Of a stretch of 58,959 bases of DNA, positions 10,906-43,103 are shown piece after piece. The position numbers and the translations under genes were made by a program. The notes below the pieces were generated by a model. It was not told the origin of the DNA and did no database searches. It worked only from the letters and a program-made list of their open reading frames with translations. The stretch is from a virus (taxonomy: Duplodnaviria; Heunggongvirae; Uroviricota; Caudoviricetes): IMG/VR virus record IMGVR_UViG_2541047708_000006; one strand, 5' to 3'. Position 1 is the first letter of the stretch. The number at the start of each line of letters is the position of its first letter.

Positions 10906-10965
10906 TCCTCACGCTCCGTAAACGACAAAACCGCCCGCAGGCGGTTTCACATAAAACATTTTGCA

Positions 10966-19253: not shown

Positions 19254-20033
19254 TTACGCCAGTTGTACGGACACGAACGCATCAGGGTCAGCCAGCAGCA
19301 TCAGCGGTGCTGACTGAATCATGGTGAACTCACGCGCCGGATCGCCGGTGGTCACCCAGTTTTTCGGGTAGCGGGCAGAGGCGTTAATACCTTCGCGCTG
19401 TGCGTCCGCATCCTGAATGCAGCCATAGGTGCGCAGACCGCGTGCCTGAGTGTTCCCCAGCACCATCGTGTTGTCCGGCAGGAAGTTCTTTTTGACGTCG
19501 TTTTCCACGTACTGTCCGGAATACACGACGATCGCCGTATCGCCATACATCCCCTTATAGGACACCGCTTCGCCCAGGTCTTTTACCGCTGTCTCCAGCT
19601 CGGAATTAGAGCCGCGACGGGTATCCAGCTTCTCCTTGACGGCTTTGAAGGAACGGAACAGCGCCCAGCCTTTCGGATCAAACACGATGATATTCACCAC
19701 GCCGCTGGCGTTCAGCGCGTAGGCTTCGATATCGTCGGTCGGGTCATACGTGGACTTGTCACGCTTGCTCCACTCCGTACCACCGGACTGTGTGATGTTG
19801 TTCGCCGCACTGCGGCCCATATCCACTTCAACCGGATCGAAGGCTTCACCGGTCATGGTGTATTTGCCCTTAAGCACGGCAGAAACTGCCTGCATCTCTT
19901 CGACCTGAGCAATGGCCAGCTCTTCGTCTCGCATGTTCTGCATGATGATGCGACGGCGGCGGTAAGCCGGGTCCGCCAGATTCTGTGGATCTTCATCCGG
20001 CAGGCGACGCAGGGTCATCTGCGGATTCACCTC
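19254..20033 (-). pseudogene. E: Major capsid protein E, 3' portion (codons 83-341) separated from its 5' portion by the inserted satellite
   Basis: Translation EVNPQMTLRRLPDEDPQNLADPAYRRRRIIMQNMRDEE... matches recalled lambda gpE from residue 83; no upstream start; stop codon 3 codons upstream of junction. Confidence 0.9.
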
Positions 20034-20034
20034 A

Positions 20035-20044
20035 TGCTTGGGTT
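20035..20044 (+). repeat. Satellite att core, left copy (TGCTTGGGTT)
   Basis: Identical 10-mer at 30768-30777; lies exactly at the break in gene E. Confidence 0.8.
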
Positions 20045-20203
20045 ACATGAGTCAATGGTGTAAGTATGTGAATGATATAAGAGGAAAAATAGAGCATAAT
20101 CTCTACCTGAATGGCTATGTTGCAATACACACTGCAATACACAGAAATCAATGTACAAACCATTCAATTATCAACCCACAAATGAAGTGAATAAAGATTT
20201 GTT

Positions 20204-20965
20204 ATGAATATTATAGATACCCTTCAAAATGACCTAGAGCGCGCAGTAGCGCTTCAAAACATACTAATTGCAAGAGCTACAGGAGCCCAGGATGAAGCTA
20301 ATAATGATTATTTGCTTCTAAGAACATATTTCTTACAAAATCCTCCTTTACATCAGCTATTACCAGAGTTTGTGAGAACTAATCGCTCACTAAAAGAATT
20401 TTGGGGATTTATAAAAAAGACTGAAAAGTATGCCCCCCGGAGAGATTTGATTTATAAGGCATTTCAGCCGATGCTGGACTATCTAGAAGGGAAAAATAAA
20501 GCTCCAGCGGATGAAGACATATCTGATGTATTAAGAAAGTTTAACGAGGATGGAGTCCACGCCGTTTGGATAAAAGCACTTGAACGGCGCCATACAGATC
20601 CGGATGGTGCGATAACCTCCGCAAGAACACTTCTTGAAACAGTTTGCAAACACATTCTTGATGATATGGGCATTCAGTATAATAATAAAAATATTGAAAT
20701 GTCAGAGCTTTATAAAACTCTTTCAAAAGAACTTAACCTATCTGCCGACCAACATACTGAAAATATCTTCAAACAAATTCTCGGCGGTTGTTCTGCAGTT
20801 GTAAATGGGTTAGGTACTCTTCGTAATAAACTCGGTGATGCACATGGAACGAACAGCTCATCAATTAAGCCATCCCCAAGGCATGCCGAACTTGCAGTAA
20901 ATTTATCAGGCTCAATGGCTCTTTTTTTAATTAACACTTGGTTAAACCTTAAAGATGGGAAATAA
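20204..20965 (+). CDS. HEPN-type Abi_C-like (abortive infection C-terminal domain) protein
   Basis: 253 aa, AT-rich; C-terminal motif LRNKLGDAHG (R-x6-H) typical of HEPN/Abi_C. Confidence 0.7.
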   Translation: MNIIDTLQNDLERAVALQNILIARATGAQDEANNDYLLLRTYFLQNPPLHQLLPEFVRTNRSLKEFWGFIKKTEKYAPRRDLIYKAFQPMLDYLEGKNKAPADEDISDVLRKFNEDGVHAVWIKALERRHTDPDGAITSARTLLETVCKHILDDMGIQYNNKNIEMSELYKTLSKELNLSADQHTENIFKQILGGCSAVVNGLGTLRNKLGDAHGTNSSSIKPSPRHAELAVNLSGSMALFLINTWLNLKDGK

Positions 20966-21187
20966 CGTATAATGAAGTAACACGAGCAATTAGTTAATCA
21001 TTATACTCAGTCGATTAATTTATTTTGACGACTCGTAAGCAATTTTTCGATGAGGGCGGAACTCCGCCCTCGGTGCTAACCTATGAGAAACGATATCTCT
21101 TCCACCGATACCATAATATTAGGTATCGCGAAGAAGCCCCAAAATCAGTGTGTTGCTTTTACTACCCAAACTACCTGTAGTTTCATA

Positions 21188-21213
21188 GTCGAGTTGCAAA
21201 TTTGCAATTCGAC
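21188..21213. promoter_or_regulatory. 26 bp near-perfect palindrome (candidate operator)
   Basis: GTCGAGTTGCAAATTTGCAATTCGAC; one symmetric mismatch pair. Confidence 0.4.
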
Positions 21214-21367
21214 TACCAGCCACAAGGCGTAAATTTGCGTCGTCAGGAATATCAACGAGTTAGCATATGAATAGGCCAAACGGCCACAAACCTCACTTTT
21301 GAGGCTTGCTCATTTATTAGCTGGCTATGGTAAGGCCCATTTTGGGGCCGTCGAGAAAATCAAAGAG

Positions 21368-21643
21368 TTATCGCCGCAGTCTGTCAGGCTTCTTCCACTG
21401 GTACGATGCAACGTTCTGGCGTTGTCCCTGCCTCCGCCTAGCTGCCAGTATAGCCAGCACTTTGGTGCGGATGACTAAGCAATCCTGTCCGTTCAGTTCT
21501 ATACCGTCACGCCACATAACCTCAGCAACCACACGAGCGTAATTTTCAGCGGTGACACTGCCCGGCTGCGTGGCCTGTTCGTCATGCTGGTGGCTGACTC
21601 CACCAGCATGGCAGATTACTTTCAGTAGTTCGGATTCAGTCAT
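21368..21643 (-). CDS. Hypothetical protein downstream of satellite TerS
   Basis: 91 aa ORF 12 bp downstream of TerS on the same strand. Confidence 0.4.
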   Translation of the reverse strand: MTESELLKVICHAGGVSHQHDEQATQPGSVTAENYARVVAEVMWRDGIELNGQDCLVIRTKVLAILAARRRQGQRQNVASYQWKKPDRLRR

Positions 21644-21654
21644 AGCGTACTACG

Positions 21655-22182
21655 TTACTTATCCTTATTCAGCTGCAACTTATCCGGTACGTTTCCTGTA
21701 CTTTCCATCAGATAATCAGCCAGTATCTGTGGGAGGTTGTCAGCAACGCCGGCACTGGCATTACAGGCTTTAGCCACTTCCTTTTTAAGTCCATCCAGCA
21801 TAGCCGGAGTCATCTGTGGGAAGCGCCTTTGCATGGTAAGCGGCAGGCTGTCCATGATAGATGAAATCTGACTCGCCAGTTTGGAAAGAACATACATACA
21901 AAACTCTGTATCAATAACGTCGCCGCGTTCGCGCTCGTTTTTAAGCTCCTGCGCCTCTGCCTGTGCTGTCAGTAATCTGATCCTGACGCGTAAAAGTTCA
22001 TCGTCATCAATATCGCCCGTTTCGTTTGTAATCTGGCTGATTGCATTGTTAACCCGATTATCTATTACACTGGCAACATCATAGAACGCCTCACGGCCCT
22101 TACGCTCGACGGGAATCACTCCCCACTTATCGAACGCAGTGGCGCTTACACGGCAACTTTTTGCCATGTTTTTTTTGTTCAT
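21655..22182 (-). CDS. Satellite small terminase subunit, divergent Nu1 homologue
   Basis: Aligns by eye with helper Nu1 (36411-36956) including C-terminal region ...LPLTMQRRFPQM...; start placed at MNKKNMAK. Confidence 0.8.
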   Translation of the reverse strand: MNKKNMAKSCRVSATAFDKWGVIPVERKGREAFYDVASVIDNRVNNAISQITNETGDIDDDELLRVRIRLLTAQAEAQELKNERERGDVIDTEFCMYVLSKLASQISSIMDSLPLTMQRRFPQMTPAMLDGLKKEVAKACNASAGVADNLPQILADYLMESTGNVPDKLQLNKDK

Positions 22183-22309
22183 CAGGTGTAATTTCATTGA
22201 TACCACAACTTAATTACTGTTTCAGGTTGGTGTATTGATTGTATTTTTCTCTTATTATTCATACAGATATAGCGAACAACAAAACCACCACCAGTCCCCT
22301 TAAAATGCT

Positions 22310-22370
22310 CATAAATAGCGAAAACCCGCGCGCCTGACGCCCCGTAGCCTGTCAGATCGCCGGAAAGGAC
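22310..22370 (-). promoter_or_regulatory. Satellite cos site (lambda-like cosN flanks, different 12-nt core)
   Basis: CATAAATAGCGAAAACCCGCG-CGCCTGACGCCC-CGTAGCCTGTCAGATCGCCGGAAAGGACCCG parallels helper cos at 37110-37175, differing mainly in the cohesive-end core. Confidence 0.7.
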
Positions 22371-22398
22371 CCGCCAGCCAGAGCAGGCCCTAATTTCA

Positions 22399-22782
22399 TC
22401 AACCAATCAGCTTATAGCGACCATCCCGTGCATTGCGGCGTACACGCTCAATCTTGAGGCATAGCGCCGCATCTGGCTTTTTTGGGACAGGTACGCGGCA
22501 ATATTCAGAAGCGCGAGGAATATTATTTATCCAGTCGATCACTTCACTTAAATACCAGGCCTTACGCCCTTCCGTAACCTGCACACGCTCCGGGAACTCT
22601 CCACTAGCCTCAAGGTTTAGCAGTGTACGACGACTCAGGGTTGTAATTTCCATCACCTGATTCATATCAACAAGGCGCTCGCTTAAACACATTTTGTCAG
22701 CGATAGCTTTTAATTCCTCTACAGCTTGATTCGGGTACATCATTTCGGCAATTGGCTTAAGGTCATTGTAATCATTCTGCAT
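22399..22782 (-). CDS. AlpA/excisionase-family HTH DNA-binding protein
   Basis: C-terminal half MEITTLSRRTLLNLEASGEFPERVQVTEGRKAWYLSEVIDWINN is an AlpA-like motif; start uncertain. Confidence 0.6.
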   Translation of the reverse strand: MQNDYNDLKPIAEMMYPNQAVEELKAIADKMCLSERLVDMNQVMEITTLSRRTLLNLEASGEFPERVQVTEGRKAWYLSEVIDWINNIPRASEYCRVPVPKKPDAALCLKIERVRRNARDGRYKLIG

Positions 22783-22793
22783 TGTATCCCCCT

Positions 22794-23135
22794 TTACACA
22801 CGAGCCAGCGGCTGAACAGAAATACCTGAGCCAACAAACGCTGCAACCTTTACTGACAGTTCTTTAACAGACTCAGGCCAGTTCAGAGCATCAACATTTA
22901 AGACACCTGTCTTATAGACCTGAGCCTGTGTTTTTTTCGCGGTGTCGATTTGTACAGCGGAAACATAAACCGCTTTACCTACGCTCGAACCATCCCATAC
23001 TACCAGTGCACCTGTTGCATCTTCCTGCATCAGTGGCGTAAATGCAGGAATTACCCCTTTATTAGCTGAAAATATCCCCAGCGTAGTCACCAGTGCTTCA
23101 GTGCCAGCCATGAGTTCAGTGTAATGAGTAGCCAT
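22794..23135 (-). CDS. Head decoration protein, divergent gpD homologue
   Basis: 113 aa; shares TPLM, LVxWDG, AxVGxxAV, LxWP, AFxG blocks with helper gpD (31068-31400). Confidence 0.7.
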   Translation of the reverse strand: MATHYTELMAGTEALVTTLGIFSANKGVIPAFTPLMQEDATGALVVWDGSSVGKAVYVSAVQIDTAKKTQAQVYKTGVLNVDALNWPESVKELSVKVAAFVGSGISVQPLARV

Positions 23136-23144
23136 TGCTCCCCC

Positions 23145-24191
23145 TTAGCCAATGCGAACGGTAACAAAACGATTGATGCGGGCCGGTATTGGCTGTGGTG
23201 CTGAATGTGTCTGCACATATTCAATAGCCGGATCACCAGGCACAATATAGTTTTTCGGTGCAAGTTCGGCTTTAGTCAGCCCCATTCGGATTAGCTCCGG
23301 ATCCTGAATACCGCCATAGGCGACAATCCCCTGAAGAGCCGTATTGCCAAGCACCATCAAATCAGGATCAAGGAAATGTTTTTCTGTTCCGTCCTCGTCG
23401 GTATAACGCCCGCTGTAAACAACAATCGCAACATCGCCCATATACCCTTTAAAACTCACCGAATCACCAAGGTCTTTAAGGGCCGTTTCCAGTTCGGAAT
23501 TAGAACCACGACGGGTATCCAGAGCCTCTTTTATCGCTCTGAATGAACGGTATTTCTTCCATACATTACCGCCCATAATGATAATATTAGTGACGCCCTC
23601 ACTAAATTCTGCGTAGCTCTCAATATCATCATTTGGATCAAAAGTTTCTTTATCCTTACCTGACCACTCAGCACCGCCAGACTGAGTGATGATATTTTGT
23701 GGTTTAATATTCCAGTCCAGCTCATAACGTTCAATACCATCGCCCTCAATGATATTTTTCCCCGTTGTGATTGCCTGAACGGCAAGCCATTCAATACGTG
23801 CACGAATAGCTTTAGCCTGATTTACAATCGCCTGTTTAACTTTAATATTACGCGCTCCAAAAGCATTGTATTGCTCAGGTGATACACCAACAGGGCGCAC
23901 AGCTAACTTATTTGGATCAATGCTGCTTTTCGGCTTCATATAGCCTGGACGAATTGTTTTTGATTCGTACCCTTCGTCACGTGAAACTTTACTACCCACC
24001 ATAGGAGAACAAAACGCTGCAATTGGGATATTTGGATCGTCGATTGTATCAAGAATAATATCGCGCGATTCAAACATTACCGAGCGAGTAAAAAACAAAC
24101 TGGTAAACAACGCATTTAGTTGTTTTTGTACATCTACAGCATTAACCACCTGTACAAGCTGGGTAGGCGAATATAAATCAACCATACGCAT
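23145..24191 (-). CDS. Major capsid protein, divergent gpE homologue
   Basis: Start placed at MRMVDLYSPTQL; C-terminal two thirds align with gpE (ITQSGGAEWSGKDKETFDPNDDIESYA..., LDTRRGSNSELETALKDLG...). Confidence 0.8.
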   Translation of the reverse strand: MRMVDLYSPTQLVQVVNAVDVQKQLNALFTSLFFTRSVMFESRDIILDTIDDPNIPIAAFCSPMVGSKVSRDEGYESKTIRPGYMKPKSSIDPNKLAVRPVGVSPEQYNAFGARNIKVKQAIVNQAKAIRARIEWLAVQAITTGKNIIEGDGIERYELDWNIKPQNIITQSGGAEWSGKDKETFDPNDDIESYAEFSEGVTNIIIMGGNVWKKYRSFRAIKEALDTRRGSNSELETALKDLGDSVSFKGYMGDVAIVVYSGRYTDEDGTEKHFLDPDLMVLGNTALQGIVAYGGIQDPELIRMGLTKAELAPKNYIVPGDPAIEYVQTHSAPQPIPARINRFVTVRIG

Positions 24192-24402
24192 CCTCTTTGC
24201 ATTCATTAAAAATAATTGTGGATATATGCTATCACCGATATTTGTCATGCGAATACATGCAACCGAGTGCAATGTTGTATAAAGTTTTGGGATAACAACT
24301 TCAGCGCGGATAATTAGTGTTAATATCTTCACTCCCTTTGGTCGGGATTTATGTAGCATGCCGGAAAATTTATTTTTTTCCGGCCTTTTTTATTGGCAAT
24401 AT

Positions 24403-24852
24403 TTAAAACGGAATATCATCTCCCCATTGTTCATTATCTCCCACTGGTGGATGGCTTCCTTGCTGATCTGCCTGTTGTTTTGCTCTGTTCAGTGCGTCAG
24501 TAGCCTGACCCTGTTGACCTTTTTTGCCGCCCGGTCGCACCGTTCGCGCACTGATTACGCTGTCTGCGATAACCTGCCAGCCCTGCCGCGTTTCACCGTT
24601 CTGTCCAGTCCACTGGCTCACCTGCATATTACCCGCCACGCTCAGGAGTTCGCCTTTGTGATGCTTTGCCAGCGCGTCGGCTTGTCTGCCAAACGCCAGG
24701 ACAGATAACCACATCGTCGCCTGACCGTCATCCGACTGACTGCAGGGCAGTGATACCGCCATACGCGCCAGCGTCATGGGGGTGCCCTTGCTGGTCTGTT
24801 TTGTCTGCGGGTCGTCCACCAACCGCCCGTAAACTGATATTTGCGCCGTCAT
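24403..24852 (-). CDS. ssb: Single-stranded DNA-binding protein
   Basis: OB-fold-like N-terminal region, Gly/Gln-rich linker and acidic C-terminal tail ending DDIPF. Confidence 0.85.
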   Translation of the reverse strand: MTAQISVYGRLVDDPQTKQTSKGTPMTLARMAVSLPCSQSDDGQATMWLSVLAFGRQADALAKHHKGELLSVAGNMQVSQWTGQNGETRQGWQVIADSVISARTVRPGGKKGQQGQATDALNRAKQQADQQGSHPPVGDNEQWGDDIPF

Positions 24853-25094
24853 GCTGCCTGCTCTCCGGACTTAATATTGATTGTTGCCACTTCCTCCGCT
24901 TCAGCAATCTCCCGTTCGGTCAGAGTGGCAAAGTTTGCAGCCGCCGTTGTCATGAATGCGCTAATCAGTTCGGGATGTGCTTTCGCGTATCCTTCCCCGG
25001 CGTTGCGGTCGATGATTTTTATCGACACCCTTAACCAGTGTTCCGTCAAATCAAGGGCGTGCGATTGTGATTTTTTTGTGTGCTTCGCTGTCAT
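24849..25094 (-). CDS. Hypothetical protein
   Basis: 81 aa ORF between iterons and ssb, overlaps ssb start by 4 nt. Confidence 0.4.
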   Translation of the reverse strand: MTAKHTKKSQSHALDLTEHWLRVSIKIIDRNAGEGYAKAHPELISAFMTTAAANFATLTEREIAEAEEVATINIKSGEQAA

Positions 25095-25146
25095 AGGCTT
25101 TATCTCACAGCAGTAAATTAAAATTTTTGCGTTTTAACCCTTCACC

Positions 25147-25368
25147 TGTTCACCTTTTGATATTTTCTCTTTTAATTCATAATGTTAATGGGTGAACAGT
25201 TTCACAAAAACTATTCACCAACTGTTCACCACTGTTCACCCTTGAAGCTCAATAAACAATCAAAAAGGTGAACAGTGAATAGTTTGGTGAACAGTTCATA
25301 AATAACTGTTCACCCTATAATATACTGATATAAAAGATATTTATGACAGGGTGAACAGTGGTGAACAG
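25147..25368. repeat. Satellite replication origin iterons (GGTGAACAG / CTGTTCACC, about 9 copies, both orientations)
   Basis: Repeated octamer TGTTCACC, the motif bound by phage P4 alpha protein at ori/crr; immediately downstream of the primase gene. Confidence 0.8.
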
Positions 25369-25381
25369 TTATTCCATAAGT

Positions 25382-27202
25382 TTAATTTTTGCTATCGTCA
25401 TTAGTGACCGATACACATGATGGCATCCAGTCTTCTGATTCCTCCGTCAGTGTCACGTTTGAACGCAAACCGTGCTTCGTTTTCCGTTTCATATACTCCC
25501 TGCCATATTCCGCCATTGCCCCCGGCATATCTTTACCGAAGCGCGTCAGTGTTACAGGTTTACCAAACCCATGTGCCCTCATATAAGCCAGATAGGCATG
25601 ATAGAGATACCTGCGTGGGCTGAATGGCACAATTTCAGCATTACCCACTAACAGGCCATCACACATTACCGATGCCATGAGATAGCCGCAGAAGTCCACC
25701 AGCGAATCCCCCTCTCGCTTTATCGCCAGTGCTTCTTCAGATTTCTGCTGCTCATATAACAGGCGTCTGGCTTCGTCCTGATCAGCAAACCGTGTAAGCA
25801 GATGGCGAATCACTACCGCCAGCTCACCTTCTATTTTTTCCGCCAGCATCGAATCGCGTTCGTTCTCCGGTACAACTTCCGAAAAATTGAATATCACCCG
25901 ACGACGTGAGATCCCCCCGCTGCGGTCACTGAATGACATGGCGTTATTGTTAACCGCCAGCACTACTGCCGGAATACGCGTTGAATAGGGGGCTTTGTGT
26001 TTCGGGTCAATTGCCACCTTGTCACCGCCTGTAATGGCCTTAATCCCTGCCCCATCACCAGCGTAGCGGGTCATATCCGGCATGATAATCAGCGAAAAGC
26101 CAACCACTAACGCACGTTCCCTTGCATCTTCCAGCGCCTTCATGCTTGCTGATACTGTATTCGCCTTACCCGCCAGCATGGTGCAAATCTCCGCCATCAC
26201 ACTTTTACCACTTCCCCCCGGCCCTGTTACCTCAATGAATAACTGCCAGTCGTACCGGTTCGCCAGCACCATGAATAATGCCGCCAGTACGCGATCTGCC
26301 TTGCGGTCATTCTCAGCCACCGAACGGCGCAACCACTTCCAGAAATTCGGCGCATGTGTTGCCAGCGTTTCCCCCTCTGCTGGTGGGCTGAAAGGTAATT
26401 CACTGGCAATTAACAACCAGTCGTTTTTGTTATGCTCCCGAAAATTACCAGTTCTGGTATCAAATACCCCGTTACTGAATCCAATCAGGTTACGGGCTGT
26501 ATTCCCCATTACAGGCAAACTTAACTTCATGGTATCTACCGCCGATTTAATGGCGTTCTGCGAATAGCTGATCTCCGCATCAATGAAAATCTGCGCCATA
26601 GCACGCTGTAACTCTTTATCCTGAACCGGCTCCCATACAACGCCGTTGTAATGATGAACGGTGTCAGAGTCGGCATTGATTGCCAGTTCGCCGCCGTAAT
26701 GTGCAAGGAGAACTTCACCGCGCTGGCTGGCCCCCATCTGATTCAACGCCAAAGATGAAGCACGCTCGTCATTTTTGCGCTCTGCCTTCTTCACTGGCAG
26801 TTCAATCACCAGACTTTCCCCATGCTCCGCTTCAGCTTTTAGGCCGACAAGGCGCGGAGTCCAGTCTTCAGGCTCTCGATCAACAAAGCTACGGTAACAA
26901 CGTGCTTCCTTTACGCCTGCAATAGCAAGTAATGTCGCAACCTTCGTCAGACTTTTCTCTGCAATCTTTCCGGCACGATAAACACGCACATAATGACGGC
27001 CTTCATCGATAATTTGCATATCATCCAGGTTTTCCAGTTGTTCCGTACCCAGAATGACTGGTGGTGTATCATCTGCTGCAATATGCTTACCTGCCCATTC
27101 ATTCCATTCTTTTGCATGGCTCCAGGCATCACTGCCAGCAAAAATGATGACTTCCGTCATTTTGTCGCGCGGTTGGTATTTTAAGTTCGGAGCACGTTTC
27201 AT
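25382..27202 (-). CDS. P4 alpha-like primase-helicase
   Basis: 606 aa; Walker A GPGGSGKS in the central region; position next to TGTTCACC iterons. Confidence 0.85.
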   Translation of the reverse strand: MKRAPNLKYQPRDKMTEVIIFAGSDAWSHAKEWNEWAGKHIAADDTPPVILGTEQLENLDDMQIIDEGRHYVRVYRAGKIAEKSLTKVATLLAIAGVKEARCYRSFVDREPEDWTPRLVGLKAEAEHGESLVIELPVKKAERKNDERASSLALNQMGASQRGEVLLAHYGGELAINADSDTVHHYNGVVWEPVQDKELQRAMAQIFIDAEISYSQNAIKSAVDTMKLSLPVMGNTARNLIGFSNGVFDTRTGNFREHNKNDWLLIASELPFSPPAEGETLATHAPNFWKWLRRSVAENDRKADRVLAALFMVLANRYDWQLFIEVTGPGGSGKSVMAEICTMLAGKANTVSASMKALEDARERALVVGFSLIIMPDMTRYAGDGAGIKAITGGDKVAIDPKHKAPYSTRIPAVVLAVNNNAMSFSDRSGGISRRRVIFNFSEVVPENERDSMLAEKIEGELAVVIRHLLTRFADQDEARRLLYEQQKSEEALAIKREGDSLVDFCGYLMASVMCDGLLVGNAEIVPFSPRRYLYHAYLAYMRAHGFGKPVTLTRFGKDMPGAMAEYGREYMKRKTKHGLRSNVTLTEESEDWMPSCVSVTNDDSKN

Positions 27203-27486
27203 TTGTTACCTCCGGCAACTAACATTGCCCGAATTTTACGGATATAGCCTGCGGCACGCCTCTGATTATCTGTCTTGCAATTTTTTACCAGAATGAAATC
27301 TCTTTCGAACTGCTGACGCGGCATAACACATTCAAAATCATAACCATCACGCAAATAAGAGACACGACGATCATCAACCGAAATAATCTTTACCCGATAG
27401 CCATAGCTATCTTTGAAAATATCCCCAAGGCTGATTTTTGAATGAGTTTGACCGCTGGCAATAAAGCCAGAAAATTTATTTTTCAT
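27199..27486 (-). CDS. Hypothetical protein
   Basis: 95 aa, overlaps primase start by 4 nt. Confidence 0.5.
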   Translation of the reverse strand: MKNKFSGFIASGQTHSKISLGDIFKDSYGYRVKIISVDDRRVSYLRDGYDFECVMPRQQFERDFILVKNCKTDNQRRAAGYIRKIRAMLVAGGNK

Positions 27487-27489
27487 TTT

Positions 27490-27714
27490 TTATTCTCCGG
27501 TATAGCTCTGGTCGTGTATTTTTATAGCTTCATCCAGCTCTTTGATGACAGGATCAAGTAACGTAATTAACGCTCCAGCTAAATTAGCATCCCGTTCATC
27601 GTGTTCCGCATTTGTTGTCCCATCAAGCCAGGTTGATAAGATTTCTCGCATATTTTTGCCACAAACGAGCGCGTTTTCAGCATGTGTCAGCACTTTAAAA
27701 TAAAGATCATTCAT
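27490..27714 (-). CDS. Hypothetical protein
   Basis: 74 aa, acidic; tightly packed in operon. Confidence 0.5.
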   Translation of the reverse strand: MNDLYFKVLTHAENALVCGKNMREILSTWLDGTTNAEHDERDANLAGALITLLDPVIKELDEAIKIHDQSYTGE

Positions 27715-28072
27715 GGCACACCTCCTGACGAATACGGGCGGCGAACATCATCACGCAGCCAGTTGGGGATTGCTGGCGGGCTTCCTGTTCGCTGGTGGCC
27801 TCGATGGTAATCACGCGCGGTTGTGCCGTACTCAGGGCGATAAAACGCCAGATGAAATTGTTTTCACATTTCTGAATAAACAGCGTGTTTTCTTCCCGCC
27901 CTTTCCAGAAAGCCGCAGTATAGCCCATCTCCTTAACCATCTTGCGCGCATCAACCAGCGTGTCAGCGGCTACATGTACCGTAGTTGCTCCATCTGCTAT
28001 GCGATCGCGATGTAGCGCCAGAAAGATGTATATAAATTTAGGGTGAGTTTGGGTATGCTGTGTTCCAGCCAT
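27707..28072 (-). CDS. Hypothetical protein
   Basis: 121 aa; first gene of leftward satellite operon. Confidence 0.5.
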   Translation of the reverse strand: MAGTQHTQTHPKFIYIFLALHRDRIADGATTVHVAADTLVDARKMVKEMGYTAAFWKGREENTLFIQKCENNFIWRFIALSTAQPRVITIEATSEQEARQQSPTGCVMMFAARIRQEVCHE

Positions 28073-28103
28073 AGTCGTTACTCCAGTTAACGGTTTGTGG
28101 TTA

Positions 28104-28208
28104 GACGCCCTAGGTGTGTTGCGAGCACCCTAGGGCGTTGTTTATAGGTATAACATCATGTTAATGTGTGTACCTATTCAACACTGATGCTAAGCAATAG
28201 GTACACAC
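28104..28208. promoter_or_regulatory. Divergent promoter/operator region with two inverted repeats
   Basis: GACGCCCTAGGTG...CACCCTAGGGCG and GTGTGTACCTATT...AATAGGTACACAC; the second abuts the ATG at 28209. Confidence 0.4.
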
Positions 28209-28403
28209 ATGTCAACTACAATTCAAAGAGATAAGCAGCCAAAAGGAGCCGGCAAAGCCCCTGCGTTTCAGATCCGAATCAATCCTGAACTCAAAGAACA
28301 GATGGCTGAATCAGCAGCTCAGGAAGGAATGAGCTTGGCCAATTGGATTAAAGAATTAGTTCGTGCTGAGCTTCGCCGTAAAGGTATAGAACCTAAAGGC
28401 TAA
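28209..28403 (+). CDS. Ribbon-helix-helix (Arc/CopG-like) small DNA-binding protein
   Basis: 64 aa; FQIRINPELKEQMAESAAQEGMSLANWIKELVRAEL fits beta-strand/helix/helix pattern. Confidence 0.6.
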   Translation: MSTTIQRDKQPKGAGKAPAFQIRINPELKEQMAESAAQEGMSLANWIKELVRAELRRKGIEPKG

Positions 28404-28435
28404 TTTTTTTAATTTTTATTGAATAGGATATTCAA

Positions 28436-29119
28436 ATGACTCCAACTCCTGACGATGCTGTATTCACTGCATCAAACATTATAAATTTCTTCGTGGCACT
28501 CGGGACTTGCACAGCAGTGTTAGTTGCATTAATTGCTAAAAAGCAATCATCTTTTGAATCAACATTTTCTCTCATGTTATCTCAACATAACAATGCTCTA
28601 AATGATCTTAGAAAAAAATCAAATTACTCAGAGTTAATTAATAAAATGATGAATGGATTGGTTTCTTTAAAAGACACTAATACACTGATGCACAATCATG
28701 ATGCTGTTTTTGGAAGCTACTTCAGAATATTATATCATCTATTGAAGTTCATTGATGAAAATGCTGGATACCATCCCTTTGATCTAGATCGTAAAAAAAC
28801 CTATACAAGCCTTGTCCGTGCACATCTAGATAATGAAATAACGTATTTACTTGCAATAAACTGTGCACATGCTAACAGTGAAAATCAATATCATTTTTAT
28901 AAAACATTGATTGAGCGCTATGCCATGTTAGAACATTTAATCTTGGATAAATCAACGCTATTGGACTATACCCCTCCAGATTTAAATGAATATCAAAAAG
29001 ATTTGCGCGTAGCAACAATAGTGGTTACCGATGATATAAAAACTATTTTTAACGAGATTGCAACAGTATATTATAAGAGCGCATTTGGAAAAAACCCTGA
29101 TTTAAAAAATTTCCTGTAA
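28436..29119 (+). CDS. Membrane-anchored protein of unknown function (candidate abortive-infection effector)
   Basis: 227 aa, AT-rich; one N-terminal TM helix (IINFFVALGTCTAVLVALIA); 33 bp downstream of the RHH gene. Confidence 0.65.
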   Translation: MTPTPDDAVFTASNIINFFVALGTCTAVLVALIAKKQSSFESTFSLMLSQHNNALNDLRKKSNYSELINKMMNGLVSLKDTNTLMHNHDAVFGSYFRILYHLLKFIDENAGYHPFDLDRKKTYTSLVRAHLDNEITYLLAINCAHANSENQYHFYKTLIERYAMLEHLILDKSTLLDYTPPDLNEYQKDLRVATIVVTDDIKTIFNEIATVYYKSAFGKNPDLKNFL

Positions 29120-29145
29120 GATATAGGGAGGAATACCTCCCTAAC

Positions 29146-29367
29146 TTACCATTCACCTCTTATCCAAGCTTGAATCTCAGAGAGTCTATAAGCCACCGCC
29201 GTAGATCCGATTTTGATTCGCTTGGGGAATTTCCCCTCCTTTTCAAGCTTCCAGCGTGTGCTGTTCGCAAGAGTGGTTAGCTCCCGACATTCTTTCTCAC
29301 GGATCATTCGGTCAATGTTAGGAATGTACTCCAGCCCCTTTTTATCAACAATTGCCATTTTTTTCAT
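29146..29367 (-). CDS. alpA: AlpA-family transcriptional regulator/excisionase
   Basis: 73 aa, typical AlpA pattern, directly downstream of integrase. Confidence 0.8.
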   Translation of the reverse strand: MKKMAIVDKKGLEYIPNIDRMIREKECRELTTLANSTRWKLEKEGKFPKRIKIGSTAVAYRLSEIQAWIRGEW

Positions 29368-29368
29368 G

Positions 29369-30604
29369 CTAACCAGCCTTTTGTTTGAGGATTGTCACTT
29401 TTGAATCAGCAGCTGCGATGCTATTGAGATATGTAGTCCAGAGTTCCAGAGCATCCAGTTTTTTAGCCATAAACTTACTCCGGTTGTAAACACCTGCCAC
29501 GCCAGGTAGCGCATGGCCTAACAGTTGTTCTACTACATAAAATTCAACACCGAGATCACTTAGATGAGTAGATAGCGTTCTTCTAAGGTCGTGTAGTGAC
29601 CATTGTTTTTCATGGCCCAAACGTTTACCGATTTTCCCCCCAATCTTGCTTACGCTTTCTCTAATTCGCAGACTTCCCAGCACATAACCAGTATGTTTTG
29701 TCTCTTCGTGAACATCCGTTACCCACTGCCGTAGAATTTCAGGTACTGGCCTGACAATTTCAACACCAGTTTTTGAGTGATCTTTCGGTACAGTCCAAAC
29801 CCAACTTTCTAGATCCCATTCGCTCCATTCTGATAATCGGGCTTCACTCATTCGACATCCAAATACTGTACAAAGCACAAACATTTTTCGCGTGTATTCA
29901 GACATTAGTTTTAAATCAGGCTCGACAAAAATTGCCTTCCAGAGCTGGCCCAGTTCGGCTTCATCCAGAACCCGATCCCGCTTACCTGCAATCTGCCCCA
30001 CATCACTCATGCGCAAATCCTTTAAAGCATCACACGTCGCGTACTGGCGTACCCGACAAAAACGAAGAGCTAATTTAGTGTCAGAAAAAACATACGCCGC
30101 CATAACTGGTGCATTACGTTTAATTCGGTCAAAACAGTCCAGCCATTCATATAGGTGAGTGTCATTTACGGGCAAATGACCGATATAGGGAAAGATATGC
30201 TTTCGAAATCTGCCAAGCGTTACAGCATGAGTTTTACGACGCACCTTACAGTAATTTTCATACCAGTAATTTAGTGCATCCTCCACTGTGACCGGCTTTA
30301 AGCGTTCTTCAGCCTGAATCTTAATCTGAATACGCGGATCACGTTTGTCAGCCAACCAACCACGGCACTCGTCGCGCTTTTCCCTTGCCTGTTTGAGTGA
30401 CATATCAGGATATTTACCCAACGTTAGCCAGACCGGAGCAGCCCGGCCACCTGCTAACCTGTAGAAGAAAACAAAGCTCACAGCCCCCTTGGTACTCACA
30501 CGAATAGAAAGCCCCTTTCCATCAGCAATGGTGATCTGCTTTTCTCTAGGTTTCCCCAGATATCCTTTAAGTGCTTTGTCGCTCAGTTTGTTCTCGCCAG
30601 CCAT
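29369..30604 (-). CDS. int: Tyrosine integrase (P4-like)
   Basis: Start placed at MAGENKLSDKALK (ORF track extends 44 codons further upstream); C-terminal HDLRRT...GH...Y catalytic signature; adjacent to att core. Confidence 0.9.
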   Translation of the reverse strand: MAGENKLSDKALKGYLGKPREKQITIADGKGLSIRVSTKGAVSFVFFYRLAGGRAAPVWLTLGKYPDMSLKQAREKRDECRGWLADKRDPRIQIKIQAEERLKPVTVEDALNYWYENYCKVRRKTHAVTLGRFRKHIFPYIGHLPVNDTHLYEWLDCFDRIKRNAPVMAAYVFSDTKLALRFCRVRQYATCDALKDLRMSDVGQIAGKRDRVLDEAELGQLWKAIFVEPDLKLMSEYTRKMFVLCTVFGCRMSEARLSEWSEWDLESWVWTVPKDHSKTGVEIVRPVPEILRQWVTDVHEETKHTGYVLGSLRIRESVSKIGGKIGKRLGHEKQWSLHDLRRTLSTHLSDLGVEFYVVEQLLGHALPGVAGVYNRSKFMAKKLDALELWTTYLNSIAAADSKVTILKQKAG

Positions 30605-30766
30605 TTTTAGCCCCAAAAAGCAATACAAGCTGCAATACAGAGATGATTGCAACACACAGATAACGAGGAAAATCCAGTGAAAGCGCCAGATAAACTTACT
30701 CTTTATTATCAAAAGATTAAGTGTAAAAACCAGCAACTACACGAAAGCCTCAGAAAGCCATGCTAA

Positions 30767-31012
30767 GTGCTTGGGTTTGACATATCCCGGTGTAAATTCA
30801 GAGGTGGAGCCGCCACGGGATCGGATAACCTCACCGGAAACAATCGGCGAAACGTACAGCGCCATGTTTACCAGTCCCGGAATTTGTGAGAGATAGACTT
30901 TCTCCGTGGTGAAGGGATAGCTCTCACGGAAAAAGAGACGCAGAAACAGCGGATCAAACTTAAATTTCTTCTCATTTGCCGCCAGCAGCTGGGCGGTTGT
31001 GTACATCGACAT
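30767..31012 (-). pseudogene. E: Major capsid protein E, 5' portion (codons 1-82), reads into satellite and stops after 9 foreign codons
   Basis: MSMYTTAQLLAANEKKFKFDPLF...GYVKPKH matches recalled gpE N-terminus, then LAWLSEAFV-stop. Confidence 0.9.
30768..30777 (+). repeat. Satellite att core, right copy (TGCTTGGGTT)
   Basis: Identical to 20035-20044. Confidence 0.8.
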
Positions 31013-31067
31013 AAAAAAATCCCGTAAAAAAAGCCGCACAGGCGGCCTTTAGTGATGAAGGGTAAGG

Positions 31068-37343: not shown

Positions 37344-37538
37344 ATGTCAACGAAGAACAGAACCCGCAGAACAACAACCCGCAACATCCGCTTTCCTAAC
37401 CAAATGATTGAACAAATTAACATCGCTCTTGATCAAAAAGGGTCCGGGAATTTCTCAGCCTGGGTCATTGAAGCCTGCCGTCGGAGACTAACGTCAGAAA
37501 AGAGAGCATATACATCAATCAAAAGTGATGAAGAATGA
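37344..37538 (+). CDS. Small hypothetical protein (possible RHH fold)
   Basis: 64 aa from internal ATG of a longer ORF; weak. Confidence 0.35.
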   Translation: MSTKNRTRRTTTRNIRFPNQMIEQINIALDQKGSGNFSAWVIEACRRRLTSEKRAYTSIKSDEE

Positions 37539-38906: not shown

Positions 38907-39138
38907 TAAGCAAAAAAGCTCCCGAAGGAGCCTTCATTTTCACTTTCTTAAATCTAACGACAGATGGCTAACATTTAAGTATTGTGAAATATTATCAAAT
39001 GTAATCATCATTGATTTACAAAAGATACATTTTGCCCCGAAAGGATTTCTGTCAGAAACATCAAAAGATGATGTTCTATACTGAGAACCATGGCAACACG
39101 GGCATCTAAAGTGAATATGGTTTGTAATATTTTCTACC

Positions 39139-39351
39139 TCAAAGTGCCACTACATGAACAGCTGCAGGGCCTTTAGGTCCGTTCTCAATACCAAATTCGA
39201 CTTCCTGATTCTCAGTTAACGTTTTGAAATCGTTGCTCTGAATAGCTGAGAAATGCACAAACACATCTTTGCTACCATCTTTCGGCGTGATGAAACCAAA
39301 ACCTTTTTCAGGGTTAAACCATTTCACTAAACCAGTCATTTTGTTAGACAT
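39139..39351 (-). CDS. Cold-shock protein (CspA family)
   Basis: [19 protein letters not shown]...[11 protein letters not shown] motifs. Confidence 0.9.
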
Positions 39352-39714
39352 CATTATTACCTTTTGAAGAAGTTAGCCCTTGGGCAGAATGGTCCGAAAA
39401 AAAATATCAGAGAGAAAAACCAACAAGAAAATCTCAAGAGGTACAAATAATAAAATTATAACAATGACTGCTTCAGATAATTTTGTAACAAACCAGAACA
39501 CCATTAACGCATGATTAACCAACCATAGCAAGGATTACTTTTGTAAAGAAAAACACACGAATGAAACAATAGCTTTATTTATTAATAAAACGTGTCATTC
39601 TGTCTAATGACCTTTTATCTTACCCTTAAGATTTCAAGGATTTTGACTCATGGAAGAGTCCTTTTTATTTAAATTTCACATTCAGCGCTAAAAATAATCC
39701 GATTTAATATTAAT

Positions 39715-42312: not shown

Positions 42313-42587
42313 GTGGTACTTTTTGTGGGAGTCATCCACTTACGCACTTTGTTTTGCTATGCCAGCAGTTAGCTTCTGCTGTAAAACTATTCATGCAGCA
42401 AACCTGCACTTCACCACAATGGTTAGCATACTTTTCCTGATTAAGTTATTGCCAAATATGCTGGCCATTGTTTCATGTATTGGACCTCCTTACTATTTAT
42501 TAAAGAGATCCAATATTCACCACTCTGTCTGTATCTCCACTCAGGCATCAGCCTTCTTCGTTATCGTATACAGACAAACTATGAATT

Positions 42588-42803
42588 TTAATCAGTAATT
42601 ATGACATTTGCTGCTGCAGGACCTTTAGCACCACTCTCTACAGAGAAGGTAACCTTTTGACCTTCAAATAAGGTTCGAAAATTATCATTCTGAATCGCAG
42701 AAAAATGCACAAACACATCTTTACTACCATCAACAGGAGAAATAAAGCCAAAACCTTTATCAGCGTTAAACCATTTTACTAAACCAGTCATTTTATTTGA
42801 CAT
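42588..42803 (-). CDS. Cold-shock protein (CspA family)
   Basis: [21 protein letters not shown]... Confidence 0.9.
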
Positions 42804-43103
42804 TCTACATTCCTTAACTTGAGCCTTTCGGCATAAATGGCTTGTATAACAGAAACGACTTCGTACTTAATTGGAGAGACTCAAAGAAGGAATAAGTGAA
42901 TAACACCTGAAATGAGAACTGCTTTAGTAAACTACTTCGTATATCGTCTGTTCTTCAAACCGACGCAATCATTAACGCATAGTTGAACATATGAAGCAAT
43001 GTTTATTTTAGACATCCAGCCATCTTCAACCCCATCAAAAAACTATAGCTTTCTTCAGGAACGTGTGTATAGTGCGCCCAGTTATCAGTATTAAGGAATT
43101 TTT

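Follow-up and report, generated by a model that had tools for sequence, protein, structure and literature searches.

A phage satellite embedded in the capsid gene of its host prophage probably combines a repressor switch with a single-gene defence cargo; the cargo would be transcribed downstream of the repressor gene and lies in a defence hotspot of the element, a helper-embedded PICI. On this reading the locus would form one transcription unit with two separable parts: a regulatory switch that belongs to the satellite backbone, and a swappable defence cargo. The switch comprises an Arc-like ribbon-helix-helix (RHH) protein and its predicted operator, and the cargo is a membrane protein of the putAbiC family. 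The window is the whole stretch of DNA that was analysed, 58,959 nucleotides in length, and all positions refer to it.

A satellite within the prophage capsid gene

The satellite is a helper-embedded PICI (HE-PICI, capE site) of ~10.7 kb, with int, alpA and primase genes, that lies within the prophage major capsid gene E and encodes a capsid E homologue of its own. The lambda-like E gene that it interrupts is found in two pieces, 30737-31039 and 19254-20030, each annotated in RefSeq as a partial major capsid gene. Both satellite/E junctions carry the 10-bp repeat TGCTTGGGTT. The RHH and cargo genes sit between the icd-like/primase genes and alpA-int, which confirms the gene order given by an earlier, sequence-only reading of this DNA. 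The features of the locus are as follows.

27707-28072, minus strand: icd-like gene (NF033153, E 6e-23), first gene of the leftward operon
28104-28139, unstranded: IR1, a near-palindromic hairpin with outer stem ACGCCCTAGG/CCTAGGGCGT and conserved core TGTGTTGCGAGCAC
28138-28167, plus strand: candidate weak promoter for the RHH and cargo genes, TTGTTT-18 nt-TAATGT, picked by eye from the alignment with low confidence
28164-28178, unstranded: left arm of IR2, ATGTGTGTACCTATT, a predicted RHH operator half
28187-28215, minus strand: predicted sigma-70 promoter of the leftward icd-like/primase/capsid operon, 10/12 consensus matches
28196-28210, unstranded: right arm of IR2, AATAGGTACACACAT, a predicted RHH operator half
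28209-28403, plus strand: 64-aa Arc-like RHH protein (YlcI/YnfO family), from profiles, sequence and fold
28436-29119, plus strand: 227-aa single-pass membrane protein, Pfam putAbiC (AbiC/AbiP group; PF16872)
29124-29143, unstranded: GC-rich hairpin GGGAGG-AATA-CCTCCC (-17.6 kcal/mol, z -3.8), right edge of the variable block
29146-29367, minus strand: alpA (AlpA-family regulator/excisionase; PF05930, E 1.4e-15), conserved right flank of the slot
29369-30604, minus strand: satellite tyrosine integrase (1236 nt; RefSeq tyrosine-type recombinase/integrase)

The cargo gene encodes a putAbiC membrane protein

Both open reading frames are real, and remote homology searches and structure prediction were run for each product, giving a putAbiC protein with an all-alpha model for the larger and an Arc-like fold for the smaller. 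The 227-aa protein matched the Pfam model putAbiC (E 2.8e-16), scoring 60.2 bits where the cut-off is 22, over profile positions 2-78 of 80, and RefSeq already names it "putative phage abortive infection protein". The sequence-only reading had found no characterised family for this protein and had supposed an undescribed effector; the family match and the existing name overturn that view, while its guess at a membrane protein of a kind associated with abortive infection was supported. Weak matches to the PADLOC AbiC and AbiP profiles (E 3e-4 each, 18-19 bits) cover residues 67-161 and overlap the putAbiC match. PF16872 was present in 33/33 close homologues, and a profile search returned 356 relatives, with the domain in all of the best 120 of these. 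Most of the relatives found are 280-310 aa long and have a longer N-terminal region; the window's protein falls within a compact subgroup of 222-240 aa. A literature search on putAbiC found no papers.

The AT-richness and the single N-terminal transmembrane helix ascribed earlier to this protein were also borne out. The gene has a G+C content of 0.323; that of the satellite is 0.446 and that of the window 0.483. The lone hydrophobic stretch spans residues 15-33 (Kyte-Doolittle mean 2.4), and values elsewhere, sampled every tenth residue, were at most 0.7. The predicted structure is all-alpha (pLDDT 88.5), with a first helix at residues 12-59; for the extramembrane all-helical domain, no solved structural relative or functional fold match was found. 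An acidic 13-residue N-terminal tail precedes the helix and KK directly follows it, so by the positive-inside rule the conserved, all-helical domain of ~190 residues is predicted to face the cytoplasm, with the short acidic tail outside. Homologues in putAbiC have invariant His, Arg and Glu residues; the invariant positions are H51, R97, H101, K104, R128, N142, H145, E160, E166 and H167. A HEPN-like motif was considered and rejected, as the invariant R97-x3-H101 is shorter than Rx4-6H and there was no HEPN fold match. We infer that the 227-aa protein is a single-gene anti-phage cargo.

The cargo occupies a sharply bounded variable slot

Comparison with sister satellites showed that the cargo gene lies in a slot that runs from the RHH stop codon to the alpA stop codon and is sharply bounded. 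In sister E. coli satellites the flanks are 97-99% identical (alpA, ~97% nucleotide identity), whereas the content of 28404-29145 is non-homologous in four of them (L002, L003, L018 and L019). At the right edge, the hairpin at 29124-29143 lies where the cargo gene and alpA converge, between their stop codons, and homology to the sister satellites picks up again at 29145-29149. This hairpin was not called in the terminator scan because it lacks a T-run.

The slots of sister satellites hold PD-T7-1 (E 1e-124), a Pycsar-type TIR protein (TIR/PDC-S35), DUF5677, DUF2971 with SWIM, and proteins without assignment. We read the genomic context of RHH homologues from the contigs that encode them. Behind the commonest RHH allele found (at least 1000 contigs) the slot is empty. 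The RHH gene, IR1, IR2 and the promoter are retained with an empty slot in L021 and L026-L033. Near-identical RHH proteins with identical IR2 arms are followed by unrelated cargo. Thus, this is a small locus of high turnover, with conserved backbone genes on both sides and defence genes among its contents. The sequence-only reading had likened it to the hotspot of P4-like elements; the likeness extends to the variable cargo slot, but not to the element, which is a helper-embedded PICI in gene E.

The placement of cargo also varies. In one sister element the TIR gene is on the opposite strand, and in another the cargo starts 292 nt downstream, so that co-transcription with the repressor cannot be taken as general. 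Other observations point to some linkage of the RHH and cargo genes. Among close relatives the RHH block is 66-78% identical, compared with 97-99% for the flanks, and allele and cargo both differ; the 5' end of the icd-like gene (from ~28030) shares this mosaic block with IR1, IR2 and the RHH gene. In addition, L034-L037 carry the same RHH protein with a cargo gene of 449-454 aa directly downstream, in a setting that differs from the usual satellite frame.

The small protein is an Arc-like RHH protein

That the 64-aa protein is RHH-like, as had been noticed from its sequence, was confirmed by several comparisons. It matched Pfam HicB (27.4 bits, cut-off 21), NCBIfam YlcI_YnfO_N (37 bits, cut-off 30) and the PHROG 'Arc-like repressor' (E 9e-8), with sub-threshold matches to RHH_1, Arc and CopG. 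Its top PDB sequence match was P22 Arc (E 0.02, residues 12-59). The six best Foldseek PDB matches of its AlphaFold model were all Arc chains, and the leading matches were Arc, NikA, AmrZ, VapB and CopG. The model has two helices, at residues 26-38 and 43-57, and the N-terminal strand is unformed, as expected in a monomer model because this strand pairs across the dimer.

The protein lacks the make-up of a HicAB antitoxin, in which HicB has an N-terminal RNase-H-like domain and a HicA toxin gene lies alongside. The HicB match covers the C-terminal RHH part only (model positions 20-50 of 51), the protein consists of the RHH domain alone, with no extension for toxin binding, and the annotation of the neighbouring genes includes no HicA. 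We regard it as a satellite backbone gene, encoding a predicted repressor that acts at IR2. Cross-talk with the prophage's own YlcI paralogue was considered and set aside, because the two proteins share only 28% identity and the window has no second IR2 site.

IR2 brackets a conserved, predicted promoter of the opposite operon

IR2 consists of perfect 15-nt arms (15/15 complementary) at 28164-28178 and 28196-28210, with 17 nt between them, and folds at -20.1 kcal/mol (z -3.4). No other copy of the pattern was present in the window at fewer than 3 mismatches. The right arm covers the Shine-Dalgarno element (AGGT) of the RHH gene and the first two bases of its ATG start codon, and abuts the -35 element of the leftward promoter. 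The left arm is situated close to +1 of the leftward promoter and overlaps the candidate -10 element of the rightward one.

Both inverted repeats are kept in 11 diverged lineages, where 14/31 pairs of IR1 and IR2 are altered on both sides, a level of covariation reached in 0/500 shuffles. The arms of IR2 change in concert across lineages and the loop varies freely. Moreover, the arms co-vary with RHH residues 19 and 21, which align to Arc Gln9 and Asn11. The residue pair A/Q is accompanied by the arm sequence GGTACA, P/H by GGTGT(A/G), and Q/R by GGTG(A/G)(C/T)C; further classes are M/N with GGTCTA and T/Q with ACGTACG.

The leftward promoter reads TTGACA (28215-28210), 17 nt, TAGCAT (28192-28187), and TTGACA-17/18-TAnnnT recurs at the equivalent position in 10/11 lineages. 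Judged by its sequence, it is a strong and conserved promoter, and it presumably functions as one. IR2 brackets this opposite-strand promoter, and its main predicted target is therefore the leftward icd-like/replication operon. Both repeats, and the overlap of the second with the start codon, had been noted from the sequence and are real, but their interpretation as sites for autoregulation stands only in part: IR2 does cover the RHH gene's own start, whereas IR1 is a separate hairpin (below), and the position of IR2 suggests an operator that serves other control besides autoregulation.

The evidence for a rightward promoter is of a different kind. Five lineages have the candidate at a matching position, as TTGnnT-17/18-TA(A/G)nGT, but it fell below the thresholds in both promoter consensus scans. 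A search for a plus-strand promoter of an antisense RNA or of the RHH gene itself returned none with at least 8/12 consensus matches at a conserved position. The gap between the RHH and cargo genes is 32 nt, with an AGGA Shine-Dalgarno element 8 nt before the cargo ATG, and the terminator scan predicted no terminator between the two genes.

IR1 is a separate covarying hairpin

IR1 has the ribosome-binding site of the icd-like gene on one side and the control region of the RHH gene on the other. It has perfect 10-nt arms at 28105-28114 and 28129-28138, which extend to 16 pairs (28104-28139), and folds at -25.7 kcal/mol (z -4.7). Of the 16 pairs, 8 are changed on both sides, and the helix is 92.5% paired in the 11 lineages. 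The core is found in both orientations among near-identical elements. IR1 is a hairpin in its own right, which covaries independently, and it is not a site of the RHH type. A role as a plus-strand terminator, argued from G-U pairs, was dropped, as the core is flipped in L026 and L013.

At gathering scores, Rfam found only a tmRNA and two cspA elements in the whole window. The sub-threshold matches on IR1 were to SymR (27 bits, where 61 is needed) and the R1162 antisense RNA (26 against 55). We also considered an immunity RNA of the P1 c4 or P4 CI type upstream of the icd-like gene, and rejected it because neither C4 nor isrK was matched when 27600-29400 was searched with E values up to 5.

A model for the locus

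We propose that the Arc-like repressor binds both arms of IR2, ~32 bp (three helical turns) apart. Bound at the right arm, it would adjoin the -35 element of the leftward promoter, which would drive the icd-like, replication and capsid genes, and would cover the RHH ribosome-binding site and start. Bound at the left arm, it would sit where leftward transcription starts and would cover the weak promoter presumed for the rightward direction. From these arm positions, the bound repressor would hold the main operon off and limit its own synthesis. The cargo would be made during satellite quiescence, because its gene lies so closely behind that of the repressor with no predicted terminator between them. 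By analogy with lactococcal AbiP, the cargo protein would be harmless until triggered by a phage product, and would then bind nucleic acid at the membrane, thereby stopping phage replication or the switch from early to late expression.

A wider proposal is possible, and we put it forward tentatively: the block of RHH gene, IR2, leftward promoter and IR1 may be an unrecognised master repressor switch of many Gram-negative PICIs and helper-embedded PICIs. Such a switch may have several 'hetero-immune' operator specificities, defence genes may be passengers inserted into the transcript of the repressor, and IR1, a covarying hairpin that can flip, may add RNA-level control of the icd-like operon. 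Published work on Gram-negative PICIs describes activation by AlpA, and not a repressor; our literature search on PICIs and ribbon-helix-helix proteins returned nothing relevant. The EcCIMP1 'repressor' is an unrelated, PerC/ANR-like protein.

Alternative explanations

Two other functions for the membrane protein were weighed. It could be a superinfection-exclusion factor that blocks DNA entry at the inner membrane in the manner of Sie or Imm, without cell killing. The N-terminal anchor, the prophage and satellite setting, and the expression expected from a quiescent element would all suit such a factor, and the family takes its name from old lactococcal phenotypes. Exclusion is nonetheless unlikely, as its family relatives take effect once the DNA has entered (AbiC at the level of capsid protein production, AbiP at replication or the transcription switch), the predicted topology places the conserved domain in the cytoplasm, and the invariant residues speak for ligand or nucleic-acid chemistry and against a passive plug. 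A part in the satellite's own life cycle, whether in interfering with the helper prophage, in tethering replication or packaging to the membrane, or in timing lysis, appears very unlikely. Satellites do encode helper-interference functions, and this one is inserted in its helper's capsid gene, but the cargo gene is missing from most sister satellites, whose backbone is still complete. There, recognised defence genes (PD-T7-1, TIR) take its place, and the gene is also found in an ICE and in non-satellite islands.

The remaining alternatives concern regulation. The sequence-only reading had presented the two genes as a regulator-effector pair. As a dedicated module, the RHH protein would specifically regulate the membrane protein at the level of transcription or serve as its antitoxin (a regulated toxin or a type II toxin-antitoxin system), and the two would act and move together. 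RHH antitoxins are common, RefSeq labels some RHH alleles 'HicB family antitoxin', and the genes are adjacent and co-oriented. RHH and putAbiC genes are found together again in E. coli, Enterobacter, Klebsiella and Pectobacterium satellites, with the Enterobacter allele beside putAbiC being the nearest to that of the window, and both the co-divergence of RHH block and cargo in otherwise 97-99% identical satellites and the pairing with a 449-454-aa cargo outside the usual frame speak for a module. We nevertheless consider it distinctly unlikely. The commonest RHH allele and L021 have no cargo, near-identical RHH proteins with identical arms precede unrelated genes, and putAbiC homologues lack any RHH gene in three other element types (a Morganella island, an Atlantibacter ICE and a CP4-57-like Salmonella island). 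The RHH protein has neither a toxin-binding extension nor a HicA partner, and the promoter that IR2 surrounds belongs to the opposite operon. A dedicated pair is thus not supported, and conservation as a pair did not hold across related satellites, in which the slot behind the RHH gene can be empty or hold unrelated cargo. We give very little credence to the view that IR2 is an RNA hairpin for translational control, and not a protein operator. Its perfect 15-bp stem would sequester the AGGT and AUG of the RHH gene, and its folding energy is in keeping with this; but the predicted leftward transcript would begin within the loop (~28180), and the rightward one has its candidate -10 on the left arm, so that neither would include both arms. 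Furthermore, the arm sequence tracks the RHH beta-strand residues, and the arms are fixed while the loop varies freely. The repressor switch with a swappable defence cargo thus remains our preferred explanation.

Significance

The locus is an ordinary further example of defence genes carried by phage satellites, and its significance is modest. It adds one more putative single-gene defence of the AbiC/AbiP type to satellite cargo, as expected from work on P4, P2 and PICI hotspots. Since the slot is sharply bounded and holds the validated PD-T7-1 together with unassigned proteins, it can be mined for new defence genes in helper-embedded PICIs. The layout of RHH gene, operator and promoter suggests a repressor switch in Gram-negative PICIs. 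Finally, an enterobacterial AbiC/AbiP homologue offers a tractable E. coli model for a family whose mechanism has been unresolved since the early 1990s.

Comparison with known systems

The 227-aa protein resembles lactococcal AbiC and AbiP as a putAbiC member, a single-gene system borne on a mobile element, and a gene of low G+C content. Proteins of the AbiC/AbiP group have an N-terminal transmembrane anchor, of one helix in AbiP and two in AbiC (PMC13064643). The window's protein has such an anchor in its single stretch at residues 15-33, and shares with AbiP the arrangement of one N-terminal anchor helix and an all-helical extramembrane domain. AbiP binds RNA and single-stranded DNA, and AbiC and AbiP differ in phenotype (PMC13064643). 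The protein described here differs from both in coming from Gram-negative Enterobacterales, in belonging to a compact subgroup, and in its weak direct profile similarity (E 3e-4).

An anti-phage hotspot has been defined as a small, high-turnover, defence-enriched locus between conserved backbone genes (Rousset et al. 2022). The present slot is comparable to the P2 and P4 hotspots and to PICI-borne immune systems as a 1-2 kb, high-turnover locus whose contents include both recognised and candidate defence genes. A repressor gene and the integrase flank one published hotspot (Rousset et al. 2022). In P2 and P4 the hotspot adjoins cos. Here, by contrast, the backbone is that of a helper-embedded PICI and the flanks are an RHH repressor and alpA. 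The closest match in overall structure is to the '11capE' HE-PICIs (Tommasini, Mageeney and Williams 2023), which share int and alpA, primase, an own capsid E homologue, a size of ~10.7 kb, insertion within prophage E, and a variable zone between alpA and the replication genes. The contents described for that zone are Bro-N proteins and C4/isrK immunity RNAs (Tommasini, Mageeney and Williams 2023). The zone in our satellite differs in giving no C4/isrK match and in carrying an RHH repressor and a defence gene.

P22 Arc is likewise a small RHH protein (~53-64 aa for the two), and is the best match of the 64-aa protein in both sequence and fold; the PxFxxR strand motif of the latter aligns with the DNA-reading strand of Arc. 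In the P22 immI region, Arc and Mnt control closely spaced, opposed promoters, and the operator predicted here also overlaps core elements of two opposed promoters. The two proteins share ~30% identity, the predicted operator has two 15-bp arms ~32 bp apart compared with a single 21-bp site for Arc, and the gene downstream is putative defence cargo rather than an antirepressor. Lambda rexAB, transcribed with cI, and P2 old, tin and fun(Z) are defence genes expressed from a quiescent element. Their protein families are unrelated to the cargo described here, for which co-transcription is predicted; the likeness is that the putative defence gene stands directly behind a predicted maintenance repressor, and would thus be made in the dormant state.

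Results

Satellite architecture and insertion site

A phage satellite interrupts gene E, the lambda-like major capsid gene of the surrounding prophage. The prophage gene is split after ...GYVKPKH, with the satellite between its halves, and the element matches the published helper-embedded PICI type 'capE' ('11capE'; Tommasini, Mageeney and Williams 2023). The 10.9-kb satellite region searched was 100% identical to the genome of E. coli O2:K2:H1 strain C 237-04. Both ORFs of the sequence-only reading, a ribbon-helix-helix (RHH) gene and a larger gene, are present; 32 nt separate them, an AGGA Shine-Dalgarno element precedes the second, and no other plus-strand gene lies between alpA and the icd-like gene.

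Features of the satellite and its junctions
19254-20030, prophage E, C-terminal part
20035-20044 and 30768-30777, 10-bp repeat TGCTTGGGTT at both junctions
~20045-30767, phage satellite, ~10.7 kb, genes read on the minus strand
23145-24359, minus, the satellite's own E homologue (lambda-E-like capsid gene)
25382-27202, minus, primase, after two small ORFs
27707-28072, minus, icd-like gene, then the two small ORFs
28104-28139, IR1, perfect 10-bp repeat, 16-pair hairpin when extended
28164-28178 and 28196-28210, IR2, perfect 15-nt arms, the right arm extending into the ATG
28215-28210 (TTGACA), 17 nt, 28192-28187 (TAGCAT), strong promoter by consensus scan
28209-28403, plus, 64-aa RHH protein
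28436-29119, plus, 227-aa putAbiC protein
29146-29367, minus, alpA
29369-30604, minus, integrase
30737-31039, prophage E, N-terminal part
Also minus: SSB, decoration protein (D-like), HTH protein, Nu1-like small terminase

Satellites of Klebsiella (L009, 8166-8747), Pectobacterium (L022, 7131-7703) and Kluyvera (L012, 7837-8460) appear to occupy another prophage late gene, a head protease (ClpP/S49 family) adjoining the portal gene, in line with a late-gene preference published for this integrase clade. At the satellite's other end, a second cargo slot separates the Nu1-like gene from the attachment site. Here it carries an AbiJ/Abi_C protein (20204-20965, plus strand; Pfam Abi_C E 1.3e-23, PADLOC AbiJ E 2e-21) containing the HEPN-type motif RNKLGDAH; the corresponding content of related loci is a 311-aa protein of unknown kind in L001 (4439-5374) and an Mrr-like restriction endonuclease in L003 (2539-3411). 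Elsewhere in the window are the tmRNA gene ssrA (296 bits; 698-1060, near the left end) and, within the prophage region, two cspA-type thermoregulator leaders with cold-shock-protein genes (39093-39509, 42525-42964).

An Arc-like protein and its candidate operator

The RHH-like character of the 64-aa protein was borne out. HicB (Pfam) and YlcI_YnfO_N (NCBIfam) scored over cut-off, with weaker Pfam matches to RHH_1, Arc, CopG and NikA; the PHROG match was 'Arc-like repressor' (E 9e-8), and RefSeq names the protein 'YlcI/YnfO family protein'. P22 Arc was the best PDB sequence match, KGAGKAPAFQIRINPEL aligning with Arc KGMSKMPQFNLRWPREV. In the AlphaFold model (pLDDT 77; helices 26-38 and 43-57), Arc chains were the top six Foldseek matches in the PDB, followed by other RHH proteins. 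A YlcI/YnfO-family RHH gene of the prophage itself lies near the cos/terminase end (37344-37538, plus strand). It also begins ATGTCAAC (Met-Ser-Thr), yet its product shares only 28% identity with the satellite protein, and the surroundings of this gene showed no IR2-like site.

The two inverted repeats noticed upstream, the second over the start codon, are real and kept in 11 diverged lineages. Across IR1 and IR2 together, double-sided changes occur at 14 of 31 pairs, a covariation reached by none of 500 shuffles. The strong promoter points leftward, toward the icd-like, primase and capsid operon: its -35 comprises RHH codons 1-3 and adjoins the right IR2 arm, its -10 falls within the IR2 loop, and its predicted start (~28180) abuts the left arm. 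TTGACA-17/18-TAnnnT recurs at this position in 10 of the 11 lineages, even where the operator sequence differs. The arms, whose centres are 30-32 bp apart in most lineages, change in concert and track the RHH residues aligned with the base-reading Gln9 and Asn11 of Arc.

RHH residues 19/21 and operator core
A/Q, GGTACA
P/H, GGTGT(A/G)
Q/R, GGTG(A/G)(C/T)C
M/N, GGTCTA
T/Q, ACGTACG

The IR2 site occurs once in the window. From promoter placement, concerted arms, residue tracking and this unique site, we lean slightly toward IR2 as an operator through which the RHH protein would repress its own gene along with the main operon of the satellite. The autoregulation proposed for the repeats would thus stand for IR2, extended to the main operon; IR1 is something else. 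No rightward promoter serving the RHH gene and its cargo was detected in either consensus scan, and a weak, positionally conserved TTGnnT-17/18-TA(A/G)nGT can only be proposed as a candidate.

Cargo turnover between the RHH gene and alpA

Sister E. coli satellites at the same capsid-gene site are ~97% identical over int-alpA (29146 onward) and up to 99% identical on the replication side; their content between the RHH and alpA stop codons is unrelated.

Slot content in related satellites
L002 and L020, 241-aa unknown protein
L003 (E. coli SCU-316), 10596-11678, 360-aa PD-T7-1 homologue (PADLOC E 1e-124)
L018, Pycsar-type TIR protein, opposite strand
L019, SWIM and DUF2971 proteins
L012 (Kluyvera), DUF5677 protein, 395 aa

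PD-T7-1 is an experimentally selected defence gene, and its close homologue in L003 supports use of the slot as a hunting ground for defence genes; new candidates come from L002 (the 241-aa protein), L012 (the 395-aa DUF5677 protein) and L038 (a 454-aa protein). The cargo slot between the replication genes and alpA-int was correctly recognized, with the RHH gene belonging to the backbone rather than to the cargo.

The RHH gene is present beside an empty slot in a classical PICI at tqsA (L021). The commonest RHH allele found (at least 1000 contigs, including EPEC E2348/69) likewise has an empty slot, with alpA 55 bp on and IR1, IR2 and the promoter motif all kept. Conversely, putAbiC homologues unaccompanied by an RHH gene are found beside rpoD in Morganella, within a conjugative element of Atlantibacter, and on a CP4-57-like island of Salmonella. 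The homologues in satellites of Enterobacter, Klebsiella and Pectobacterium again occupy the RHH-alpA slot, despite different replication and capsid modules.

The RHH block, 66-78% identical among close relatives, differs where the cargo does, forming a mosaic block from ~28030 (or 27863-28093, by relative) to 29145. Four loci outside the usual satellite frame (L034-L037, 3001-4567) encode the same RHH protein and, immediately behind it, a 449-454-aa cargo product, with FRG, DUF3892, Nu1-like and TrbL genes alongside, so repressor and passenger are able to move together. Both observations indicate that switch and passenger are often exchanged jointly.

The 227-aa protein belongs to the putAbiC family

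The AT-rich composition (G+C 0.323 against 0.446 for the satellite) and single N-terminal membrane helix (residues 15-33) of the larger protein were confirmed. It had been thought to match no characterized family with confidence; in fact it matches Pfam putAbiC (PF16872) at 60 bits (cut-off 22), with weak PADLOC AbiC and AbiP matches on the same region, and is already listed in RefSeq as 'putative phage abortive infection protein'. The pair occurs at ≥99.9% identity in 11 of 5,426 complete E. coli genomes, and 33 close homologues (48-83% identity) come from Enterobacter, Klebsiella, Morganella, Pectobacterium, Salmonella and others. A profile search returned 356 relatives; all of the best 120 listed carry PF16872, and most of those listed are 280-310-aa proteins of Vibrio, Photobacterium or Pseudoalteromonas with a longer N-terminal region. 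Homologues share invariant polar residues (Q50, R97, H101, K104, R128, N142, C143, E160, E166, H167) and a terminal AFG motif. The confident AlphaFold model (pLDDT 88.5, pTM 0.78) is all helices, the first spanning 48 residues and including the membrane segment. With a short acidic N-tail before the helix and conserved lysines directly behind it, the conserved domain is predicted to lie on the cytoplasmic side. This gene is probably defence cargo of the AbiC/AbiP kind.

IR1 and the start of the icd-like gene

Covariation of the outer IR1 stem does not follow the RHH allele. Within the hairpin, a 14-nt core is conserved, but its orientation is reversed between elements that are nearly identical elsewhere and share RHH protein and IR2 (TGTGTTGCGAGCAC vs GTGCTCGCAACACA in L026 and L030, ~-105 to -70 from the RHH start); the hairpin thus seems able to flip. 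A T-rich tract lies 3' of IR1 on the plus strand. No Rfam family matched IR1 at threshold; sub-threshold matches were SymR (plus strand) and R1162 antisense (minus strand). The first 14 icd-like codons (28030-28072; MAGTQHTQTHPKF...) share a conserved block with IR1, IR2 and the RHH gene in Enterobacter, Klebsiella and Kluyvera satellites, and the rest of the icd-like gene diverges. That only this 5' end is conserved hints at an overlapping non-coding function, perhaps an antisense RNA or the promoter for one.

Discussion

We consider a repressor switch combined with AbiC/AbiP-type defence cargo reasonably likely. In a quiescent satellite, the RHH repressor would sit on IR2, silencing the leftward operon and holding down transcription of its own gene. 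With no terminator predicted in the 32 nt before it, the cargo gene would be expressed at a low constitutive level; the product would be anchored in the inner membrane, its helical domain on the cytoplasmic side. When a competing phage infects the cell, some phage product might activate the putAbiC protein, which would abort phage development, probably by nucleic-acid binding as in AbiP.

Other readings fare less well. IR2 overlaps the RHH start codon, where it might act as a translational RNA hairpin; however, neither predicted transcript holds both arms, which argues for a DNA operator and leaves the hairpin highly improbable. The two genes might also form a dedicated pair, regulator with effector or antitoxin with toxin. 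Adjacency is what that reading explains, but each gene occurs without the other; as cargo, the effector therefore stands alone as a self-sufficient single gene, with no obligate RHH partner, and we regard such a pair as quite unlikely. The membrane helix would also suit superinfection exclusion at the membrane, which we think unlikely, and a role for the cargo in the satellite's own life cycle is very doubtful, the gene being absent from most sister satellites.

Much of this setting is established. Defence hotspots between conserved phage or satellite genes are known, one of them between a repressor gene and an integrase (Rousset et al. 2022), PICIs carry immune systems, and the putAbiC family already has its Pfam entry and RefSeq name. 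In the literature we found neither a PICI variable zone with an Arc-like repressor and operator classes around the main-operon promoter nor defence genes on that repressor's transcript; the emphasis there is on AlpA activation, Bro-N proteins and C4-type RNAs. The evidence allows that a PICI variable zone may hold an Arc-like repressor switch with defence genes on its transcript.

Lactococcal AbiC (two transmembrane helices) and AbiP (one) form one structural family without assignable function; AbiP is membrane-anchored, binds RNA better than ssDNA, is non-toxic in the absence of phage, and blocks phage DNA replication and the early-to-late transcription switch (PMC13064643). The Pfam family, membrane helix and all-helical model of the 227-aa protein agree with that 2026 review. 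The best PDB match of the RHH protein by sequence and fold is P22 Arc, and switch and cargo are often exchanged as a block, much like lambdoid phage immunity regions. Whereas the variable zone of published capE-type PICIs holds Bro-N proteins and C4-type RNAs, here it holds a predicted Arc-like repressor and a probable defence gene.
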